64,000 bases of DNA from an uncultured Gemmatimonas sp. (GCA_964416005.1 CAYQCP010000006.1:20082-84081); one strand, 5' to 3'; positions 17,454 to 26,547 are shown, counted from the first letter of the stretch. Notes: a model not told the origin generated them from the sequence alone. Numbers and translations: made by a program.

Positions 17454-18200
17454 CTAGATGACCGCGAGTTCACGCGGGTATTCGTCCCACGTGCGGCCAT
17501 CGAGTTCACGGCCACCGGCCTTCGGGGTAAAACCGCCCCATTGCTTCCAGAAGAAGCGGATCCTCCGTCGGCGACACAGCGCGCGCAACCCACGCGCCCA
17601 TCGGATGTCGACCGGGCGATACCCTGGTCCGCTCTCCCCGCCGCCGATGATCCAGTCGATCCCGCTGACGTCGAGGTCATCGAGCGGTCCGAGCAGCGGC
17701 TCCGCGGAGATGAACCGCACCGCGGCAGGGATCGCGCGCAACGCGTTGGCGCGGTGCGCCACGTCCATGTTCTCAATCGACGTCCCCATCCAGATATTCG
17801 GGCTCCAGTTCAGCCTGTCGGCAAGGCGCACCGCGCGCTCCGGTCGCTTCGTCAGGAGTTGGAACTGATGCTGGCCACACTCGTTCATCACCGCGAAGAC
17901 CCGCTGGATGTGCTCCAGGGAGAAGTGCGCGTGAAAGACGTCGCTCATCGAGTTGACGAAGACGCGACGAGGCTCCCTCCACTTCCGCGGCAATTCGATG
18001 CGATCGATCCAGAAGCGTGGAGCGAACGGATCGTCGCGATTCGCGGAGGACTCCCGCACGGGCGGCTGCTGTAGGTAGATCTGCCGTGTGCGTCGATAGG
18101 CCACGACCTGAGCGTAACAGTGATCGCAACCGGCGGAGATCTTCGTACACCCCGTCATCGGGTTCCACGTTTCGTCGGTCCACTCGATCTTGGTCGGCAT
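17454..18200 (-). CDS. DUF5131 / phage Gp37-Gp68 family protein
   Basis: MPTKIEWTDETWNPMTGCTKISAGCDHCYA (family-typical start and C-x6-C-x2-C), FVNSMSDVFH, FISAEPLLGP, and IIGGGESGPGYRP. Conservative start at 18200; an in-frame upstream extension exists (see findings). Confidence 0.85.
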   Translation of the reverse strand: MPTKIEWTDETWNPMTGCTKISAGCDHCYAQVVAYRRTRQIYLQQPPVRESSANRDDPFAPRFWIDRIELPRKWREPRRVFVNSMSDVFHAHFSLEHIQRVFAVMNECGQHQFQLLTKRPERAVRLADRLNWSPNIWMGTSIENMDVAHRANALRAIPAAVRFISAEPLLGPLDDLDVSGIDWIIGGGESGPGYRPVDIRWARGLRALCRRRRIRFFWKQWGGFTPKAGGRELDGRTWDEYPRELAVI

Positions 18201-18559: not shown

Positions 18560-19963
18560 CTAACCCCAGAGTGACCGATTCACCTGCTGCATGCTGGCGC
18601 TGCTGCAGAATACGCAATTTGCGTCTGTCATTCGTCGCCGACGGCGAGACGCGAGAGGCGGCCGCCAGGCGCTGACGCTCCAGTAGTTGTCGCTTAATGG
18701 AGGACCACTCGTCAGTCGCCGGGCCAACTCCAGGGCGAGCAATGTGCCGGCGAGCGCACTGATGAAGGCGAAGGGCGCCAAGACGCGTTCGTCCGCCGTC
18801 GCCGCCAGCGCTCCCGATGCGCACAGCTGCTTGAACAGCGTGTCGTAGGCCGTTCCCTCGATATCGGTGCTGACAAGGTGCGGGTGACGTTTCGCAATCC
18901 GAGCGGCGGCCCGCGGACTGATTCGTGATTCGCGAACATCCGTCACAGTGACATCGAGATGGTCCGCGATATGTTGTTCAAGCGAATACTCCGCTTCGTC
19001 GGCGCGGTAGATACACGCCAAGCAGGCGGCCGTCGTCGGTTGGCGGTGATGGTGGATGACGACCTCGTGAATGCCGGTGGTCGAGGCATCGAACACCTCG
19101 CCTGGACACTCATTCTGCAGCTCGCGTCGCGCGCGACGACTATCAACCGCCACGATGAGACGAGGTAACCATGCGCCATGCGTCTTCATTGGAAGGTTCT
19201 GGAGCCGCGCCCTGTAGCCCCGAAGCGTCAATTGCGCGAAGTCCGCGCGCGCCTTCTCGGCGAGACACAGAGCCTTCGCTTGGCCGATATCGGGCGGATT
19301 GAAGTAGAGCTGTCGATTCAGATTACCTGACGCCACGACATCGTCGTCCGCGATGACCAACTCTCCGGACACCGGGAGATGCCGAAGCGCCCAGAGAAAT
19401 CCGTTTCCGATGGCGCCCGCGCCTGCCAGATACGCGGTCCCCACATCAAACGGGGTGGCAAGTTGCGCGTCGTCGAGCCCTACCACGGCGAACGACAGAC
19501 GAAACGGCAGGCGCAGCGGCACCGGACCCGATTGCGGCACGGTTTCGGGCAGAAGCGCGCGGAAGGCGGCCGCCGCGATGTAACACGCCGCGAGCGCGAC
19601 GTAGGGTCGCGACACGGGAACGTCGAGAGCCGCGGGGAGCTTCGCGCCGTCGATCGTGAGGCCCGCACGATCGAGGACCGCGAATCGGCGTGGTGCCGTG
19701 CTCCTCGGTGTGGTCGCTCCCACAACGACCTCAAGATCCGGCACGAAGCCCTCAGACGTCATGCTGACCTGGGTCACGGAACGAGCCAACAACTCGATCA
19801 CGTCCTGCGCGAGGGCGACGGCGGTCGCATCGCTCGCGGGAGCGGTGACCAGCACATTGCGGTCCAGCGTGCGCTCGGCCTCATCGACGCTGAGTCCGGC
19901 AGCGCGGGCGAGCGTGCGGGCATTCTCTGATCGGGCCTCCTGCGTCAGGAGAGATCCAGGCAT
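18560..19963 (-). CDS. E1-like ThiF/MoeB-family adenylating enzyme (BilD-like)
   Basis: YLAGAGAIGNGFLWAL (Rossmann GxGxxG), NLNRQ, DSRRAR, and the CxxC pairs CLACIY and CVFCSS. About 190 aa of N-terminal extra domain. Start at MPGSLLT (19963). Confidence 0.85.
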   Translation of the reverse strand: MPGSLLTQEARSENARTLARAAGLSVDEAERTLDRNVLVTAPASDATAVALAQDVIELLARSVTQVSMTSEGFVPDLEVVVGATTPRSTAPRRFAVLDRAGLTIDGAKLPAALDVPVSRPYVALAACYIAAAAFRALLPETVPQSGPVPLRLPFRLSFAVVGLDDAQLATPFDVGTAYLAGAGAIGNGFLWALRHLPVSGELVIADDDVVASGNLNRQLYFNPPDIGQAKALCLAEKARADFAQLTLRGYRARLQNLPMKTHGAWLPRLIVAVDSRRARRELQNECPGEVFDASTTGIHEVVIHHHRQPTTAACLACIYRADEAEYSLEQHIADHLDVTVTDVRESRISPRAAARIAKRHPHLVSTDIEGTAYDTLFKQLCASGALAATADERVLAPFAFISALAGTLLALELARRLTSGPPLSDNYWSVSAWRPPLASRRRRRMTDANCVFCSSASMQQVNRSLWG

Positions 19964-20406
19964 GTGTCCACCTCCCGTGCGGGCACCGCACACCACACAT
20001 TGCGGGCGTTCAGGCGGAAGACCTTCACGTCGTCCGCGAAGGTCCGGTCATCCGTGTTGACCGCGAACTGGGGCAGGACCAGCGAGAGCGCCCCTTCATG
20101 GCGAATGATGGCCCATGTATCATCCGCGACTGAATGGAACGCGTCGCGCGGATGCGTGTGCACCTGGGCTGCCACCATCAATCGTTCACGTCGAAGGTGC
20201 GCCGTGAGCTCGCGCATGCTCGCTGGCGGAATCCGGAAGAGATCCGCGCGCGCTTCCTGCATTGGCCGATAGCATTCGGTGACCACGATGGAGTCTCCCG
20301 CTCGTCGACCAAGCCAAAGCACCACGCACTCCACGCGCGTGCGTCCCGTCTCCTGAAGTACTGCGAGCGTTATCGCGCGCAGCGACGCGTTCACCCGGAC
20401 TCGCAT
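19945..20406 (-). CDS. JAB/MPN (JAMM) metalloprotease (BilC-like)
   Basis: ECVVLWLGRR (conserved Glu) and QVHTHPRDAFHSVADD (HxH...S..D). The ATG at 20406 shares one nucleotide with the E2 stop. Confidence 0.85.
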   Translation of the reverse strand: MRVRVNASLRAITLAVLQETGRTRVECVVLWLGRRAGDSIVVTECYRPMQEARADLFRIPPASMRELTAHLRRERLMVAAQVHTHPRDAFHSVADDTWAIIRHEGALSLVLPQFAVNTDDRTFADDVKVFRLNARNVWCAVPAREVDTCLDLS

Positions 20407-20843
20407 CAGCCGGCTCCTTTTCGCCAGGCGCGCCAAAGCTGTGTCAGTAATCCGCCAAGCGAGTATTCGTCCAGTGTCTTCAACGGTTCCCACGGATCAT
20501 TCAAATGGCTCGGATGGCAGTGGTACTCGCGCGACCCGCGCATGCAAACGAAGGGTCGACCCGTCGTGGGATGTGGACTGTTGTTGAACACGCCGGTGGG
20601 GTTCGGCAGGAGTTGCGATAGCGCCGTCCCCGTCGCGTCGAGGAGTGCGATGGACGCGGGCGTGTCATTCCAATCGTCGCACGTCAATCGCACGCGGAGC
20701 GTCGTGCGCCCGGCGGCCGCAAAGGAACAATCAAGATCGGGGAACTCCTGGGTATGCAAGATCCAGCCGCGCTGCGCGAGGAGCGACGCTGGAATGCGCG
20801 CGACCTCCTCGCGAAAGCGGGCTTTGGCAGCTTCGGGGTGCAC
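20406..20843 (-). CDS. E2-like ubiquitin-conjugating protein (BilB-like)
   Basis: SPHPTTGRPFVCMRG resembles the E2 HPN-x(n)-G-x-x-C active-site loop. GTG start at 20843 lies 2 nt after the Ubl stop and is preceded by GGGGGAGGG. The track uses a TTG at 20876. Confidence 0.7.
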   Translation of the reverse strand: MHPEAAKARFREEVARIPASLLAQRGWILHTQEFPDLDCSFAAAGRTTLRVRLTCDDWNDTPASIALLDATGTALSQLLPNPTGVFNNSPHPTTGRPFVCMRGSREYHCHPSHLNDPWEPLKTLDEYSLGGLLTQLWRAWRKGAG

Positions 20844-20845
20844 GG

Positions 20846-21157
20846 CTACCCTCCCCCGCCTTCCGGGGGGCCCCAATCCAGCTCCACCCGTCCCTGGAGG
20901 TGGTTCTCGAGGTAACTCCTCGCGGGATCCACCTGACGCAGGCCGCCATCATCGGAGACCGTGACAAGCCACCCGTCGGTGCTCGTGAGGTGCAGGGCGA
21001 GCGCCGCTGCCTTGAGCACGACCGACACTTTCTGGTGCGGCGGAATCTCCTGGTACCCTTCCTCGGGATAGAGTCCGGCGGTCGTGGAAACCGAGACCTG
21101 TACCTTCTCGGCCCGCTCGACAGCCGCGTTCAGTTGGGACTGCGCAAGATCGCTCAC
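20846..21157 (-). CDS. Ubiquitin-like beta-grasp protein ending in Gly-Gly (BilA-like)
   Basis: 103 aa, beta-rich (VQVSVSTTAGLY...WLVTVSDDGGLRQV...RVELDW). The C-terminus ...PPEGGGG is immediately followed by the stop. First gene of the operon. Confidence 0.7.
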   Translation of the reverse strand: MSDLAQSQLNAAVERAEKVQVSVSTTAGLYPEEGYQEIPPHQKVSVVLKAAALALHLTSTDGWLVTVSDDGGLRQVDPARSYLENHLQGRVELDWGPPEGGGG

Positions 21158-21192
21158 GGAACCTCCGACGCTGAATGATGGTACTGTAGTTT

Positions 21193-21256
21193 ATGGCCAG
21201 TTTATACATATGTCAATGGCCAGATTTCACACTATTTATCTTGCGTTATGGGCCAA
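21193..21256. promoter_or_regulatory. Three ATGGCCA-type repeats in a divergent promoter (candidate RHH operator)
   Basis: TTATGGCCAGTTTA (21191-), CAATGGCCAGATTT (21214-) and TTATGGGCCAATTG (21246-) lie in the low-GC gap between the Bil operon and the RHH gene. Confidence 0.4.
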
Positions 21257-21294
21257 TTGTTGTTACCTTTCAGGTCGCTCACAGGGGGGGACGT

Positions 21295-21504
21295 ATGGAT
21301 CGCCGACAGATGACGCTGATGCTAAGCGACCGCGAAATGACGGTGCTCGACGAGCTCTCTGCGCGCCGTGGGATGTCGAAGACCGCGCTCGTTCGTCAGG
21401 CGCTGAGGCTCTATCAGTCGATCACTGAGCGCATTGCCTCCGGCGACAAGCTCTTCATGGAACACCCGCACACGAAGGAGAAGGCAGAGCTCGTCGTGCT
21501 ATGA
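21295..21504 (+). CDS. Ribbon-helix-helix (CopG/Arc-type) protein
   Basis: MDRRQMTLMLSDREMTVLDELSARRGMSKTALVRQALRLY. ATG preceded by GGGGGGGA. Confidence 0.8.
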   Translation: MDRRQMTLMLSDREMTVLDELSARRGMSKTALVRQALRLYQSITERIASGDKLFMEHPHTKEKAELVVL

Positions 21505-22142
21505 CGGAGTTGATCAGCGTCGTCCCGCTCTACAATCGACTGACGGGCGCGTTTGAGGAAGCTCGACTCTACCAGCCGGTCGATCGCTCACATCTCGATG
21601 ACTTCGATGCCCGCTGGATGCCAGAGTTCGATCGGCGATTCGAAGCTCACGCGGCCCGCGGCGGCCGCGGCATCCCCGAGCAACTCCAGGATTGTCGCTG
21701 GGACTGGCGCGACTTGGTCGAGAAGTACGCCCGACGGCTTGATTACGAGTCGTTTGCCCTTGAGTGCGCAGGAAGCACCCAAGGGCTGCTCCTGGTGGCC
21801 ACGGCGGCGTTTGGTCGCGCCCCCGGGAACATGGGCCTTGAGATCGTCTATGTTGATCGCCTCGCGACGGCGCCGTGGAACCGGCTCGGTGGCGCACGAC
21901 CGCCGGTGTACAAGGGAGTCGGTCGCATCTTGTTGATCGCCGCCATGAGCTTGAGCGATGAATTGGGATTCCACCGACGTCTGGGATTGCACGCCTTGCC
22001 GCAGGCGGAGTCGTGGTACCGAGAGGTGTGCGGCATGGAAGATCTCGGTCCGGATCGCGCCTATGCGAACCTCTGCTACTTCGAAATGACGGAAACCCAA
22101 GCCGCGGCCTTCGTGGCCGAGGACGAGGAAGGCACCGCATGA
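21501..22142 (+). CDS. GNAT-family acetyltransferase-like protein
   Basis: LEIVYVDRLATAPWNR...YKGVGRILLIAAMSLSDELGFHRRLGLHALPQAESWY (acetyl-CoA-binding-type segment). ATGA overlap with the RHH stop. Confidence 0.7.
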   Translation: MTELISVVPLYNRLTGAFEEARLYQPVDRSHLDDFDARWMPEFDRRFEAHAARGGRGIPEQLQDCRWDWRDLVEKYARRLDYESFALECAGSTQGLLLVATAAFGRAPGNMGLEIVYVDRLATAPWNRLGGARPPVYKGVGRILLIAAMSLSDELGFHRRLGLHALPQAESWYREVCGMEDLGPDRAYANLCYFEMTETQAAAFVAEDEEGTA

Positions 22143-22660
22143 GACTGATTGTGTCGAAGGAGTGGCTGCGTCGACGCATCGCGTCGGATCCTGACATGGA
22201 AACCGACGCGGGGCTTTCCGTGGCCCGTCTCGACGGCCTGATCGCCGATGCCGTCGCTCCGCACGGAGTGCCGGGCGTACGCTCCGGGTCCACGGAGGAC
22301 CCACGGGCCCTTCGCCTTGCGCTCGCTCGTGTGGTGAAAGCGCTGCGCGTCCAATCTCACGCAACCGTGCAGGCCCTGGCCGAGCGCCTCGATGTGGAAC
22401 CTGCGGACCTGAAGGGACTCGAGGAGGACCCGGCGTTTATCGTTCCGCCCCGCACGCTCTCGTTGGTGGCAAAGCACTTTCAACTCCCAGTGAGCGAGGT
22501 TGCGATGCTCGCAGGTGCGACGCGGGTGACGGATCGCACCCTGGCTGACAATGCGCTAAAGTTCGCGGCGCGATCCGCCACGCTCAGCGACGTCGACGAC
22601 GAGGGTCGCGAAGCGCTCTTCGCCTTCGTCCGGTTTCTCACCGAACGTACCCACCGATGA
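22139..22660 (+). CDS. HTH (XRE-like) DNA-binding protein
   Basis: Internal ATG at 22139 (ATGA overlap). LARVVKALRVQSHATVQALAERLDVEPADLKGLEED. Confidence 0.7.
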   Translation: MRLIVSKEWLRRRIASDPDMETDAGLSVARLDGLIADAVAPHGVPGVRSGSTEDPRALRLALARVVKALRVQSHATVQALAERLDVEPADLKGLEEDPAFIVPPRTLSLVAKHFQLPVSEVAMLAGATRVTDRTLADNALKFAARSATLSDVDDEGREALFAFVRFLTERTHR

Positions 22661-23589
22661 GCCTCGACGCGCCCGTGGTTGGTGTGCGCGAGCGCCGGTC
22701 CATTGCAGATGCCGTGGCGCGCGTCCTTCAGGATCTGGGAACGCCGGAGCCGCCGCTCAAGCTCGAAGACGTGCGGCAGCTGCTGGCGCTCGACCTGCAG
22801 TACTATGACGGTTCCGACCGGAGCGTCATCAAGGCGTTTACGCACCAGTACCGGCTGTTCGCCAAGAAACGGCTTCCGGCCCTCGGCGCCAAACTGCAGC
22901 AGACGCTACGACAGTCGAAGCTGTTAGCGTTCTGGGTGCCGGACGGTAAGCGCGTTTTGATCGACGAGAGCGCGCCGAAGCCGAAGCATCGATGGATCGA
23001 AGGGCACGAGATCGCGCACAGCCTGACGGACTGGCATCGTGATTTCCTATTGGGCGACATCGCCGCGACACTCGATCCGCAGTGCCATGCGACCATCGAA
23101 GCAGAAGCGAACTATGGTGCGGGACAGCTCCTCTTCTTGCATGATCGCTTCGGCCGTGAAGCACGAGACCTGCCCGCGACGTTCTCCTCCGTCCAGCTGT
23201 TGGCCGGCCGCTACGCCAACTCCATCACCTCCACCCTGTGGCGCTTCGTGGAGCAGCGGAATCCCAGTGGGGCGTCGTTCGGCATGATCAGTGTGCACCC
23301 GAACGTCCCCACGATCGGCGCGCACGATGGCCCTGACCCGTGGCGCTATTTCATCCGGTCGGCTGCCTTCCAAACTCAGTTCTCTCATGTCACGGCGCAC
23401 GACGCGTATCGCATTCTCTCGACGCACGCGACCTATCAGCGCCGCGGCCCGATTCTCGAGATCGAGACGCGACTGCGTGACGTGAACGGGGTTGGGTGGC
23501 ACTTCAGCGTTGAGTCGTTCTGCAACTCGCATGCGGTGCTGACGCTGGGAGTCGCTGTTGCTCCCGTCGCGTCACGCGTCGCGGGATAA
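22657..23589 (+). CDS. ImmA/IrrE-like zinc metallopeptidase
   Basis: WIEGHEIAHSLTDWH (HExxH) and IEAEANYGAGQLLF. ATGA overlap with the upstream HTH gene. Confidence 0.8.
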   Translation: MSLDAPVVGVRERRSIADAVARVLQDLGTPEPPLKLEDVRQLLALDLQYYDGSDRSVIKAFTHQYRLFAKKRLPALGAKLQQTLRQSKLLAFWVPDGKRVLIDESAPKPKHRWIEGHEIAHSLTDWHRDFLLGDIAATLDPQCHATIEAEANYGAGQLLFLHDRFGREARDLPATFSSVQLLAGRYANSITSTLWRFVEQRNPSGASFGMISVHPNVPTIGAHDGPDPWRYFIRSAAFQTQFSHVTAHDAYRILSTHATYQRRGPILEIETRLRDVNGVGWHFSVESFCNSHAVLTLGVAVAPVASRVAG

Positions 23590-23733: not shown

Positions 23734-24195
23734 TCAACGGAGCGGTTCCCTCAGGCATGCCAGTACGGCGTCGTAGAGCGGCTGATGTAGAACCGTCCAC
23801 CGATAGGGCCAGCCGAATGCCTCGCAGATGGCGGCGGCAACGGACCTGCTTCGGCTCACTCCAGCGTGGCAGTGGAGGAGCATCTGAGGCGCACGTCGGT
23901 GTGTTCGCACAAAGGCGGCGATGGCCGCGGCTGGCAGGCGCACATCTACGCCTGGCTCCAAGTTGCCGTGGAGGTCGACATCTTCGATCTCCAGCGACAG
24001 TATCGACTTCCAACCAGACCGAAACGTCGTCCGTTCCATGCCTGGCGCTCGGATCGAGATCACCACGCCGCGATGCACCGGCCTCGCATGCGCGGCCTCA
24101 TCTCTTGAGAGCACGCGGACCAACGGCACGCCTCGAGGGCGACGTCCGTGCCAGAGCGGTCCATCTTCGCTCAACATCCGTTCGAGTGACGTCAT
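23734..24195 (-). CDS. Cys-based protein phosphatase (dual-specificity/PTP-like)
   Basis: P-loop LLHCHAGVSRSRSVAAAI (HCxxGxxRS). Confidence 0.65.
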   Translation of the reverse strand: MTSLERMLSEDGPLWHGRRPRGVPLVRVLSRDEAAHARPVHRGVVISIRAPGMERTTFRSGWKSILSLEIEDVDLHGNLEPGVDVRLPAAAIAAFVRTHRRAPQMLLHCHAGVSRSRSVAAAICEAFGWPYRWTVLHQPLYDAVLACLREPLR

Positions 24196-24431: not shown

Positions 24432-25895
24432 TCATTTCGTTCCGGCGCGGTCTGGCCAACGCTTCGGCACGGATGCCACAACCGGTTCCGAAGTCCTCAC
24501 ATCACTCATCTTCGTCCGCACCGCATTCCGTGCCTCCTTCGCTCGCCCGAGAAGTTCCCGATTCTCGCGGTCTCTATAGACGCGATTACGTGTCTCGCGG
24601 CTGTTCGCCCCGATCTTCTCGAGGAGCAGGTCATCCTCGTAGTGAAGGGCTGCGACGTCTATCATCGTGCGGCGCACACCGTACCAACCGCGGCCCGGCA
24701 CTGGAGTGATTCCCACGTGCTTCTCGAGCTCGTGAAAGGCGTCAAGTGCGGACCGCCGATTCCAGCGCGACAATCGCTTTCGCGGGGTGATGATGCCCCC
24801 GCGCAGCTTTCCACCGGGAAAGAGCGGGTAGTCCTGCCGGGCTGCCATCTGGAACTCTCGTTCCAGCTTGCACAGATACCCCGACGCGAGAATCGCGCGT
24901 ATCCGCTCTCCCTGGGCGTCGTCGAGCTCGATGTCCGTGCCCGGTTTGCTGCCTTGCTGCGGAATGTGCAGCGTGAATCGGAAACTCGCACCCCGCCGCT
25001 CGGTGTTGAGGTCGGTTCGATTGCACGCCAGCAGCTGCCCCAGGCGAAGTTCAGCACCAACGTCGAACAACAACTTGAAGCGTGGGTCGCCGTATTCGTC
25101 CGCGGCGCGAAGGAGTTTCGCAATATCGGCAGCTTCGTGACGAGGTCGACGGGGAGTATGCTTCTGTTTGAATTGCTTTTCCCACGCGCGGCCGAGCTGG
25201 GCATGCCAGTCCTTAGGCACGAGCACATGGTCTCTGGACACGCGACCGCTTTCCACGAGCCACCGCGCGATCTTCGTCAGCGCGGCCACTGCGATTTCCA
25301 GCGACCGTGGGCTCGGTGTCGGAGACGGGACGGACGAGGGTGCCGCGTCAGCGGTCAACCGCGCCAGGTGCTGTCTGGCGCTCGCTGCAATCCAAGCAGT
25401 GACGCCTGCCATCACATCGTCGGAACGTACAGCGTCCCAAAGGGAATCGCCGGGCAGGAAGTCCTTGGCGAGGCGGCGCACGAGGCGCGCAGCGTCTGCA
25501 TGCTGTCGCGCAGCGCCGAGGTAGACACCGCCTGGGTCCGTAGCGAGTGCAATCTCGACACCTTCGCGGAGCGTGAGTGCCGCGAAGACCTGCCCCCTCC
25601 AAGTCCCCGCCCGAACCGCCGCCAATCGCGCGGACTGTGCGTTCGCGATTTCCCGTGCTCGCTCGATCTTCGCTTCCACCAGTTCACCCTTGGCGTCGCG
25701 GATCGTGAGCGCCACTCGGACCTTCACCCGCCGATCTCGACCGCTGCGACGCGGATCGGAGTAGCGAAGCTGTAGTCTCCCGGATCGATCGGCACGCTCC
25801 TCAATGATGACACGCGCGCCGTGCGCACCGCAGGAATAGCGGAACGGGGCGGCGCGCGCGGCGCGGCGCGCGCGAACGCCCAAGCGTCGCGTCAC
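24432..25895 (-). CDS. Tyrosine recombinase / phage-type integrase
   Basis: C-terminal catalytic region GRGWYGVRRTMIDVA...NRVYRD. N-terminal arm-type segment RLQLRYSDPRRSGRDRRVKV. GTG start at 25895 overlaps the upstream stop (GTGA). The track ORF extends to 26369. Confidence 0.85.
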   Translation of the reverse strand: MTRRLGVRARRAARAAPFRYSCGAHGARVIIEERADRSGRLQLRYSDPRRSGRDRRVKVRVALTIRDAKGELVEAKIERAREIANAQSARLAAVRAGTWRGQVFAALTLREGVEIALATDPGGVYLGAARQHADAARLVRRLAKDFLPGDSLWDAVRSDDVMAGVTAWIAASARQHLARLTADAAPSSVPSPTPSPRSLEIAVAALTKIARWLVESGRVSRDHVLVPKDWHAQLGRAWEKQFKQKHTPRRPRHEAADIAKLLRAADEYGDPRFKLLFDVGAELRLGQLLACNRTDLNTERRGASFRFTLHIPQQGSKPGTDIELDDAQGERIRAILASGYLCKLEREFQMAARQDYPLFPGGKLRGGIITPRKRLSRWNRRSALDAFHELEKHVGITPVPGRGWYGVRRTMIDVAALHYEDDLLLEKIGANSRETRNRVYRDRENRELLGRAKEARNAVRTKMSDVRTSEPVVASVPKRWPDRAGTK

Positions 25896-26290
25896 GAGGT
25901 CCTTCCGCGCTGGGATCGGCTGCTCGTGAGGAAAGCCTGAAGCGCCGGCATGCTGACGCGATATTGCTTCCCGGCGCGCTCGGCCTCGAGATTCTTCTGG
26001 CGAATCTGCCAGCGCACGGCCTCGTCCGATACACCGAGCCTCGCGGCCACCTCCGCGACCGTCAGCCAGGCCTCTTCGGCGGCTGCCTGCTGGAAGGCGC
26101 GGTCCATTTCGCGGCAAACTCCCTGCAGCGTCTCTACCATCGGGTTGCTCGGGTTTAGCTCGTGCGCCGCCTCGGCCAGTTGACGAAGTCGGTTTGCGAG
26201 ATCGCGCATGGGTGCGGCGGCAATGACGGAGGGCCCTGGCGGGCGCGATTGTTTCATTGGTCTTTCCCCTGACACCTGGACGCGGTGCAC
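25892..26290 (-). CDS. Excisionase/MerR-like HTH protein (start uncertain)
   Basis: WLTVAEVAARLGVSDEAVRWQIRQKNLEAERAGKQYRVSMPALQAFL. Immediately upstream of the integrase and coupled to it. Confidence 0.6.
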   Translation of the reverse strand: MHRVQVSGERPMKQSRPPGPSVIAAAPMRDLANRLRQLAEAAHELNPSNPMVETLQGVCREMDRAFQQAAAEEAWLTVAEVAARLGVSDEAVRWQIRQKNLEAERAGKQYRVSMPALQAFLTSSRSQRGRTS

Positions 26291-26547
26291 TGGCCGCAGC
26301 CTCGATGGATTGGGAAAGAGCGTCCGGGCTCGCGCGTCCGCACCGGCGACATCCGCCGCGTACGGTCACCGCATTTCTCCCGCCGCCTTACTGAGTGGTC
26401 ACAACGGACCCGCACGCCGACATGAAGACGGTCCATGTCAATGTTGTAGCGTGCTGACGTGCCGAGTGTCAGCCAGCCGTAGCCTGGTCGGCGGCGCCTC
26501 TGCGGCCGCAGCTTGGGTCGATCTTGCGTTCCCGTCGACGGGCGATG

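Follow-up and report, generated by a model that had tools for sequence, protein, structure and literature searches.

A 64,000-nucleotide (nt) stretch of DNA from an uncultured Gemmatimonas sp. (CAYQCP010000006.1:20082-84081; hereafter the window, in which all positions are counted from the first letter) was found to carry, at 18560-21157 on the minus strand, four intact and tightly coupled genes in the order ubiquitin-like protein (Ubl), E2, JAB peptidase and E1. This region very probably encodes a Type II BilABCD ("CEHH" or "6C") ubiquitin-like conjugation pathway in a Gemmatimonadaceae metagenome-assembled genome. The conjugation operon is of an already characterized kind, and the window contributes an example from Gemmatimonadota to a known family. 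Chambers et al. (PMC10557695) described operons that encode a JAB peptidase, a "CEHH" protein, an E1 of several domains and usually also a Ubl, arranged as Ubl-CEHH/E2-deubiquitinase (DUB)-E1, and gave the name Type II BilABCD to what an earlier bioinformatic analysis had called "6C". The same study solved complexes of the Ensifer aridi proteins and showed processing of the Ubl by the DUB, a thioester-type architecture and conjugation to lysines in E. coli (PMC10557695). We found every sequence- and fold-level feature that marks Type II Bil in the window operon. A sequence-only reading of the same DNA had proposed a complete Ubl-E2-JAB-E1 conjugation operon of the Bil kind, and all four open reading frames (ORFs) were indeed present and intact. 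Its label "6E-type" was wrong, since a CEHH-type E2 belongs to 6C/Type II Bil, while 6E denotes the Bub/DUF6527 family.

The enzymes of the operon were identified by comparison with protein families and with solved structures. Pfam placed E1-N (6.6e-18, residues 21-172 of the 478-amino acid (aa) ORF) and ThiF (2.7e-16) in the E1, Metal_CEHH (2.8e-11) in the E2 and Prok-JAB (1.6e-5) in the JAB protein; the Pfam search of the E2 assigned no Prok-E2 family. The best match of each enzyme among PDB sequences was to the E. aridi counterpart: E1(BilD) 8tyz_A for the E1 (8.6e-20, residues 25-440), DUB(BilC) 8tyx_B for the JAB protein (2e-14) and E2(BilB) 8tyz_C for the E2 (1e-6, centred on the catalytic motif). 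Judged by sequence comparison, the Pfam and PDB matches are far beyond chance. When 42 E2 sequences were aligned, C100, E106, H108 and H113 were invariant, and the spacing of the motif (+6/+8/+13) was identical to that of C138/E144/H146/H151 in E. aridi. C100 is the catalytic cysteine, with E106, H108 and H113 completing the CEHH motif, and C100 is also the cysteine of the FVCM string to which the sequence-only reading had given that role. An AlphaFold2 model of the E2, built with the 42 sequences, had a predicted local distance difference test (pLDDT) score of 94.6. Foldseek searches of the PDB with this model returned E. aridi BilB chains (8tz0_C/8tyz_C) as the top three matches, with template modeling (TM) scores of 0.73-0.79 at 23-24% identity, followed by the eukaryotic UBC enzymes Ubc6, Rad6 and E2-25K. 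The E2 is modeled with a UBC-like fold that has the cysteine at the catalytic position.

Alignment of 20 E1 sequences indicated that the nucleotide loop G181-G188 (GAGAIGNG), R217, D292, C381 and the cysteines C314, C317, C450 and C453 were invariant. C381 lies in a helical insertion and was one residue off E. aridi C417 in a pairwise alignment, and the four other cysteines (CxxC...CxxC) correspond to the zinc (Zn) site described for BilD. The E1 is predicted to pair an N-terminal, inactive adenylation-like domain (E1-N) with an active adenylation domain of the ThiF type, and to carry a Cys4 Zn site together with a helical CYS insertion. An extra N-terminal domain of ~190 aa had been noted in the E1 from the sequence; the domain was present, as Pfam E1-N, but its size was ~165-175 aa. 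The active-site residues of the JAB protein are E26, H83, H85, S92 and D95. E26 aligned with E33, the residue mutated in the crystallized BilC, and the HxHx6SxxD strings of the two proteins aligned as well.

The Ubl was recognized by its fold. Its AlphaFold2 model (pLDDT 86) had a disordered N-terminal tail of ~17 aa and a single beta-grasp domain with the order beta-beta-alpha-beta-beta-beta, and Foldseek matched the model, with a probability of 1.0, to ubiquitin-like domains in the PDB, to SUMO and to E. aridi BilA (8tyx_A, TM 0.69, target-normalized), which was among the top hits. The model and its structural matches agree with the beta-grasp that had been supposed from the sequence. The window Ubl had no match in Pfam, NCBIfam or PADLOC, and some members of its family matched TUG-UBL1, YukD and Ufm1 weakly. 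The sequence-only reading had itself named three possible objections, concerning the fold of the Ubl, the fold and cysteine of the E2 and the integrity of the operon in related genomes. We looked at each of these and found a modeled beta-grasp Ubl, a UBC-like E2 with its reactive cysteine and an operon that was intact in most related genomes.

A distribution scan with one genome per species identified 37 loci related to the window operon, 34 of which had a Ubl homologue directly upstream of the E2. Type II Ubls have a reactive Gly followed by 0-9 residues, and among these 34 loci the GGGG was conserved with 0-4 extra residues. The conserved C-terminus, (I/L)DWGPxEGGGG, was final in 16 of the 34 and was followed by 1-4 residues in the other 18. 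The claim that the Ubl already ends in free Gly, so that maturation by the JAB peptidase is not needed, was supported: the Gly run of the window Ubl is its C-terminus, as in those 16 loci. Going by its coding sequence, the window Ubl is produced in mature form and needs no trimming. About half of the Ubls of the clade are thus ready-made, yet all 37 operons keep the JAB gene, which suggests that the conserved role of the JAB peptidase is deconjugation rather than maturation.

The other family of Bil operons, Type I, of the Collimonas kind that tags phage central tail fibres, to which the mention of characterized Bil systems in the sequence-only reading would point, was weighed against these data. 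The PADLOC models BilC (3e-14) and BilD (9.3e-10) matched the JAB protein and the E1, and the gene order is common to both types, but the BilA and BilB models did not match the Ubl or the E2 at E<=0.01. The window E2 has the full CEHH set, of which the Glu and the first His are reported not to be conserved in Type I, and the single beta-grasp domain of the window Ubl differs from the Ubls of Type I, which overwhelmingly have two. We regard a Type I operon as very unlikely. Operons of the 6E/DUF6527 (Bub) family encode fused proteins and a DUF6527 protease and use Tyr/Ser oxyester chemistry (PMC11601596). For the window, an operon that works through oxyester intermediates on Tyr and Ser, with a serine protease of the DUF6527 family, was suggested only by the 6E label, although Ubl, E2-like and E1-like domains, and in some cases a JAB domain, are found in Bub operons too, and a link to CapH/CapP is frequent among them. 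However, none of the four window proteins matched DUF6527, and they are separate proteins instead of Ubl-E2, JAB-E1 or E2-E1 fusions. The catalytic cysteines E1 C381 and E2 C100, which Bub E1 and E2 proteins do not have, were invariant. The 6E/Bub reading is refuted by gene content and catalytic residues, and we give it next to no probability.

Public annotation would point in a third direction. The E1 is annotated as a ThiF family adenylyltransferase, and near-identical proteins in the same 90% clusters, deposited as Gemmatimonadaceae, are named "ThiF family adenylyltransferase" or "hypothetical protein". The ThiF annotation would fit a sulfur-carrier or cofactor-biosynthesis module (ThiS/MoaD-like, ThiF/MoeB-like and JAB proteins) that has no part in protein conjugation, and NCBIfam ThiF/MoeB-type models did match the E1, weakly and all far below the cut-offs. 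On the other hand, the operon includes a dedicated UBC-fold E2 with a catalytic Cys, and two features typical of E1s that conjugate are present in the E1, namely the additional inactive adenylation domain and the CYS insertion. The adjacent genes include none for rhodanese, thiamine or molybdopterin, and the regulator cassette that flanks the operon (Table 1) also flanks Bub-like operons and operons resembling the cyclic oligonucleotide-based antiphage signaling system (CBASS). A sulfur-carrier module is, in our assessment, extremely unlikely.

Gene starts were read directly from the sequence, and the arrangement of the operon was taken from the ORF list together with this direct reading (Table 1). 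The motifs listed in the sequence-only reading were all present (HPTTGRPFVCM, ECVVLWLG, HTHPRDAFHSVADD, GAGAIGNGF, CLAC and CVFC), and the junctions were as it had claimed, with a 2-nt gap between the Ubl and E2 genes and overlaps of 1 nt (E2/JAB) and 19 nt (JAB/E1). The strong Shine-Dalgarno string that it had reported before the E2 GTG was also found (GGGGGAGGG), and the same letters double as Gly codons of the Ubl. These C-terminal codons, GGC GGG GGA GGG (20846-20860, minus strand), form a Shine-Dalgarno-like string 5 nt before the E2 start, and in related loci, too, the E2 start adjoins or overlaps the Ubl stop. AAAGGAG lies upstream of the JAB ATG and GGGAGGTGG upstream of the E1 ATG. 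For the E2, JAB and E1 genes the mechanical ORF list also gave longer versions; the Shine-Dalgarno strings sit before the shorter starts. A TTG at 20876 was considered as the E2 start and disfavored, and we assign a 145-aa E2 from the GTG because the 117 E2 homologues cluster at ~145 aa. The E1 homologues cluster around 465 aa, in line with the shorter E1 start.

Table 1. Coordinates of the bil operon, the shared regulatory region and the divergent cassette in the window.
Feature	Position	Strand	Details
bilA, ubiquitin-like protein	20846..21157	-	103 aa; GTG start; GGAGG 4 nt upstream; ends DWGPPEGGGG-TAG
bilB, CEHH-family E2-like protein	20406..20843	-	145 aa; GTG start 2 nt past the Ubl stop
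bilC, JAB/JAMM metallopeptidase, deubiquitinase-like	19945..20406	-	153 aa; ATG shares 1 nt with the E2 TGA
bilD, E1	18560..19963	-	467 aa; ATG start; 19-nt overlap with the JAB gene
Divergent promoter/operator region	21158..21294	.	between bilA and the ribbon-helix-helix gene
Ribbon-helix-helix protein (CopG-type)	21295..21504	+	69 aa; Pfam RHH_1 7.4e-6; first gene of the cassette
GNAT-like protein	21501..22142	+	213 aa; 4-nt overlap with the ribbon-helix-helix gene
XRE-type helix-turn-helix protein, CapH-like position	22139..22660	+	173 aa; overlaps both neighbors; PADLOC HTH_VI 3.1e-5; Pfam HTH_31 sub-threshold
ImmA/IrrE (M78) zinc metallopeptidase, CapP-like	22657..23589	+	310 aa; HEIAH; PADLOC capP 3.3e-11, residues 101-200

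Several observations weigh against the Type II Bil assignment, or against reading the region as a simple copy of the E. aridi system. The Ubl had no meaningful match among PDB sequences, either as a single sequence or as a 57-member profile, and because of this its homology to BilA is argued from fold and synteny only. The window E2 is without ~50-60 residues of BilB, made up of ~30 internal and ~21 C-terminal ones and including a disordered loop that has been proposed to recognize targets in E. aridi (PMC10557695), and therefore target selection may differ. The M78 peptidase and the helix-turn-helix (HTH) protein of the flanking cassette had no significant match to solved CapP, IrrE or CapH among PDB sequences, and the regulator does not look like a plain CapH/CapP pair. 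Finally, antiphage function has been demonstrated for no Type II Bil in the literature examined.

The data show gene content and coupling, catalytic motifs, predicted folds, homology, conserved synteny and operator design; the enzymatic activity, the regulation and the biological role of the window operon (antiphage defense or a stress response) are inferred. The mechanism that follows is drawn from homology to the crystallized and biochemically tested E. aridi system. The E1 adenylation domain would adenylate the C-terminal Gly of the Ubl, which would then pass as a thioester to C381 on the mobile helical CYS insertion and be handed on to the CEHH-type E2 at C100, which has H113 next to it. 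From there the Ubl would go straight to target-protein lysines with no E3 involved, and the JAB peptidase would reverse or edit the conjugates. Among Type II systems, that of E. aridi is the only one in which E1/E2-dependent attachment of the Ubl to lysines has been shown (PMC10557695). The sequence-only reading had linked operons of this kind to protection against phage by tagging of tail proteins; this has been shown for Type I Bil but not for Type II, the targets and biological consequence of which are stated as unknown in a report that raises a role in stress response (PMC11601603).

That statement about Type II targets and consequences would also fit a non-antiviral role for the same enzymology, namely tagging induced by DNA damage or stress on mobile elements and acting on host or plasmid proteins. 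Regulators of the CapH/CapP type respond to DNA damage, the bil operon and its cassette occur as the same eight-gene block on a conjugative Bradyrhizobium plasmid, and the window neighbors are not recognized defense genes, with the exception of one PADLOC candidate. Against this role, published Type II operons were reported near clustered regularly interspaced short palindromic repeats (CRISPR) and other immune systems (PMC10557695), Type I Bil is a proven antiphage system, and the other operons that the cassette accompanies (CBASS-like and Bub-like) are defense-associated. We consider a non-antiviral role possible but would put it forward only tentatively.

The 37 loci of the scan belong to Pseudomonadota, Thermodesulfobacteriota, Acidobacteriota, Gemmatimonadota, Bacteroidota, Verrucomicrobiota, Ignavibacteriales, Marinimicrobia, Myxococcota and Binatia (~ten phyla), with Dyella psychrodurans and two Bradyrhizobium species among the cultured hosts. 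The JAB gene was present in all 37 and a clear CEHH E2 in 35, and the four-gene order was kept in 34. Homologue searches found 842 homologues of the E1, 117 of the E2 and 112 representative homologues of the Ubl; a word-indexed search with the Ubl had found only the Ubl itself, and its relatives came from the exhaustive search. The window operon had been described from the sequence as a divergent representative, which did not hold within its own clade, where it is not especially divergent and has hundreds of relatives at ~50% (E1) and ~60% (E2) identity. From the crystallized E. aridi proteins, by contrast, it is distant. The eight-gene block on the plasmid is at NZ_CP096257.1 124522-129657 (L118), on the conjugative plasmid pBb1S5b of Bradyrhizobium barranii 1S5. 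Its genes carry the RefSeq names ImmA/IrrE peptidase, HTH regulator, hypothetical, RHH, hypothetical, putative metal-binding protein, Mov34/MPN and ThiF.

Some loci varied in the number of Ubl domains or in the integrity of single genes. Tandem Ubl domains were found in two operons that were otherwise similar, with three domains in a Nevskia metagenome-assembled genome (MAG) (L011, 5282-6121) and two in Dyella psychrodurans (L008, 5563-6123), and these match the published Ubl1/Ubl2/Ubl3 diversity. The exhaustive Ubl search also returned Ubl-like stretches in very large proteins, eight in one of 925 aa (P0286) and four in another of 1471 aa (P0320). Genes split into two or three ORFs were the E1 gene in L025 (7001-8403) and L067 (3060-4479) and the JAB gene in L052 (1706-2123). 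The split E1 and JAB genes reflect either gene decay or assembly/indel errors in MAGs.

Upstream of the bil operon and divergent from it lie four translationally coupled genes on the plus strand (21295-23589), which encode a ribbon-helix-helix (RHH) protein, a GNAT-like protein, the XRE-type HTH protein and the M78 peptidase. The PADLOC capP match of the peptidase covers the peptidase core only, and the Pfam match to Peptidase_M78 was sub-threshold; the NCBI name within the same 90%-identity cluster is ImmA/IrrE family metallo-endopeptidase. The GNAT-like protein of the window matched no Pfam or NCBIfam model, and a 12-sequence profile found no PDB match. A weak Acetyltransf_10 match was seen in 4 of 12 orthologues, and several RefSeq plasmid homologues of the 213-aa protein are named GNAT family N-acetyltransferase. 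By these sequence relationships the 213-aa protein is probably a divergent GNAT, although the assignment is weak.

In 11 of the 37 genome loci all four cassette genes are present beside the operon, with order and orientation unchanged, and the RHH gene with the gene of the 213-aa protein flanks a twelfth. An RHH orthologue of 65-70 aa was found at this position in 11-12 of the genome loci (37 in all) and also in the majority of the 80 metagenome loci (cassette loci: L001, L002, L004, L006, L008, L010, L011, L013, L014, L017, L025 and L038-L117), and the family of the 213-aa protein had at least 468 relatives in metagenomes. When the operon on the other side of the promoter was recorded for the 32 cassette loci with enough upstream sequence, it was Bil II in 10 and another divergent cargo in 22. 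Cargo other than Bil was assigned by reading of clustered sequences. A putative Bub-like cargo consisted of a ~250-aa protein with a Ubl, a ~400-aa JAB-E1 fusion and a ~140-aa Zn-finger protein; other putative cargo included a CD-NTase with a patatin (CBASS-like) and a kinase-JAB-E1 set.

The region between the RHH gene and bilA holds a sigma-70-like bil promoter on the minus strand, with a -35 element TTGACA at 21216-21211 and a -10 element TAAACT at 21193-21188; a promoter scan found 2 sites where 0.3 were expected. Two palindromic boxes, TGGCCA at 21194-21199 and at 21217-21222, lie directly against the -10 and the -35 element, respectively, and an imperfect box, TGGGCCA, lies at 21249-21255. 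In 77 homologous intergenic regions T[AG]GC[CT]A boxes occurred 1.88 times per 150 base pairs (bp) as against 0.13 in shuffled sequences (~14-fold), at spacings of 11, 22 and 33 bp. On direct inspection, the type of box (TGGCCA or TAGCTA) co-varied with residues 5 and 9 of the N-terminal beta-strand of the RHH protein. All 27 loci with an RHH protein of the type QMTL(M/I/V)LS, nearly all of them Bil II, had TGGCCA/TGGCTA, and those with the type TMTLNL(T/S) mostly had TAGCTA/TAGCCA, with five exceptions. This co-variation is consistent with reading of the boxes by the RHH protein, although it is phylogenetically confounded, the two types being two clades. Mutual information between box type and the columns of the RHH or HTH alignments mostly reflected variable columns and phylogeny and told nothing about the HTH protein; a clear pattern emerged only when the RHH beta-strand was inspected directly. 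The RHH protein is a candidate reader of the TGGCCA boxes.

Taken in this context, expression of the bil genes is probably repressed from the divergent promoter, at which the phased TGGCCA boxes abut the -35 and -10 elements. By analogy with CapH/CapP, DNA damage or phage infection would probably lift the repression by way of the neighboring HTH and M78 pair in the CapH/CapP position, and the HTH and peptidase genes are set apart from the promoter by the RHH and GNAT-like genes. The four-gene cassette is the only part of the region that looks as if it may be undescribed. It is conceivable, though rather unlikely on balance, that the cassette is a portable control module for Ubl and CBASS-type operons in which the RHH protein, not the CapH-like HTH protein, reads the 11-bp-phased boxes and the GNAT-like enzyme adds acetylation-based control or a toxin on top of a CapH/CapP-style switch.

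The genes on either side of this region were also surveyed. A DUF5131 (Gp37/Gp68-like) gene lies on the minus strand at 17454-18200, 360 nt downstream of the E1 gene, and matched two phage-defense candidates of PADLOC, PDC-M41B and PDC-M30B, at ~1e-92; no partner gene was recognized for it. It was considered as a fifth component of the operon and rejected, as it adjoins none of the 37 related operons. Convergent with the M78 gene is a 153-aa ORF (23734-24195, minus strand) with the string HCHAGVSRS, a CX5R cysteine-phosphatase signature, and a weak Pfam DSPc match; this ORF was not found in the related genome loci. A long ORF at 24432-26369 (minus strand) with an Arg-rich N-terminus resembled a recombinase on visual inspection; it was considered as an integrase at an island border and rejected, its C-terminal 447 aa having no Pfam or PADLOC match. 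The window contains no tRNA genes, and no island border could be defined. To the right of ~27 kb are ordinary transport genes, including a resistance-nodulation-division (RND) efflux system and a tripartite ATP-independent periplasmic (TRAP) transporter.

The operon by itself changes little, as the pathway was structurally solved in 2024, and its interest is modest and comes mostly from three features, namely the compact E2, a Ubl encoded in mature form and a regulator cassette that may be undescribed. The compact clade (145-aa E2, ~465-aa E1) is large and spans ~ten phyla, and because its E2 is without the disordered loop, the idea of a target-selecting loop that arose from E. aridi cannot be general. 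The cassette offers a testable handle on the switching-on of systems that have no assigned targets, and it accompanies Bub-like and CBASS-like operons as well. Bradyrhizobium barranii with pBb1S5b is a cultured host that carries the same block and is tractable for experiments.

Compared with known regulators, the cassette resembles CapH/CapP in that an XRE-type HTH gene is followed by an M78 peptidase gene, divergent from a defense-type operon. CapH/CapP is a DNA-damage-responsive HTH repressor with an M78 peptidase switched on by single-stranded DNA (Lau et al.), and the CapH and CapP genes adjoin 15% of Type II Bil operons (PMC10557695) and 31% of Bub operons. The window differs in that the HTH protein is 173 aa long with a long N-terminal extension and that the RHH and GNAT-like genes precede the pair, next to the shared promoter. 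An RHH/GNAT-like extension of CapH/CapP was not mentioned in the literature found, which had the two-gene pair only, and this absence does not prove that the extension is undescribed. Type II toxin-antitoxin modules that pair an RHH protein with a GNAT protein include TacAT, AtaRT and KacAT. As in these modules, a small RHH gene in the window lies directly upstream of a GNAT-like gene and overlaps it. In contrast to them, the window RHH protein has no DUF1778 match in Pfam, the GNAT-like protein is longer (~205 aa) and by Pfam resembles GNATs only weakly, and the pair is always joined in one operon with the HTH and M78 genes.

Among the conjugation systems, Bub Types I and II are likewise bacterial Ubl conjugation operons that are often controlled by CapH/CapP; their Ubls are diverse, with 1-3 beta-grasp domains, and the RHH, GNAT-like, HTH and M78 cassette of the window is also found flanking Bub-like operons. 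They differ in the use of Tyr (E1) and Ser (E2) oxyesters, in the fusion of proteins and in the DUF6527 serine protease. Type I BilABCD (Collimonas sp. OK412; Hör, Wolf & Sorek) shares with the window the four functions and their order, thioester chemistry and the lack of an E3, and its JAB protein and E1 are recognizably homologous to those of the window, as the PADLOC BilC and BilD matches indicate. Unlike the window system, Type I has a Ubl of two beta-grasp domains and an E2 without the Glu and first His of CEHH, and it is for Type I only that antiphage activity and tail-fibre targeting have been shown.

The Type II BilABCD system of Ensifer aridi TW10 (PDB 8TYX, 8TYY, 8TYZ and 8TZ0; PMC10557695) has the same bilA-bilB-bilC-bilD order as the window. 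Common to both are a CEHH E2 at identical spacing with a UBC-like fold, a JAMM DUB, a single beta-grasp Ubl with a conserved C-terminal Gly, and an E1 with inactive and active adenylation domains, a CYS insertion and a Cys4 Zn site, and in both a divergent HTH and M78 peptidase regulator shares the promoter. The window proteins are shorter: the E2 has 145 aa as compared to 204 aa in E. aridi, corresponding to the ordered core of BilB (134-146 residues resolved), and the E1 has 467 aa as compared to 535 aa. The window Ubl ends at its reactive Gly run, whereas E. aridi BilA needs Ala98 removed. Likeness between the two Ubls is in fold and not in sequence, and the modeled E2 has ~24% identity to BilB in the structural alignment. 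Relative to E. aridi, the window regulator cassette has the RHH and GNAT-like genes in addition, both close to the promoter, and the window system is from Gemmatimonadota while that of E. aridi is from Rhizobiaceae.

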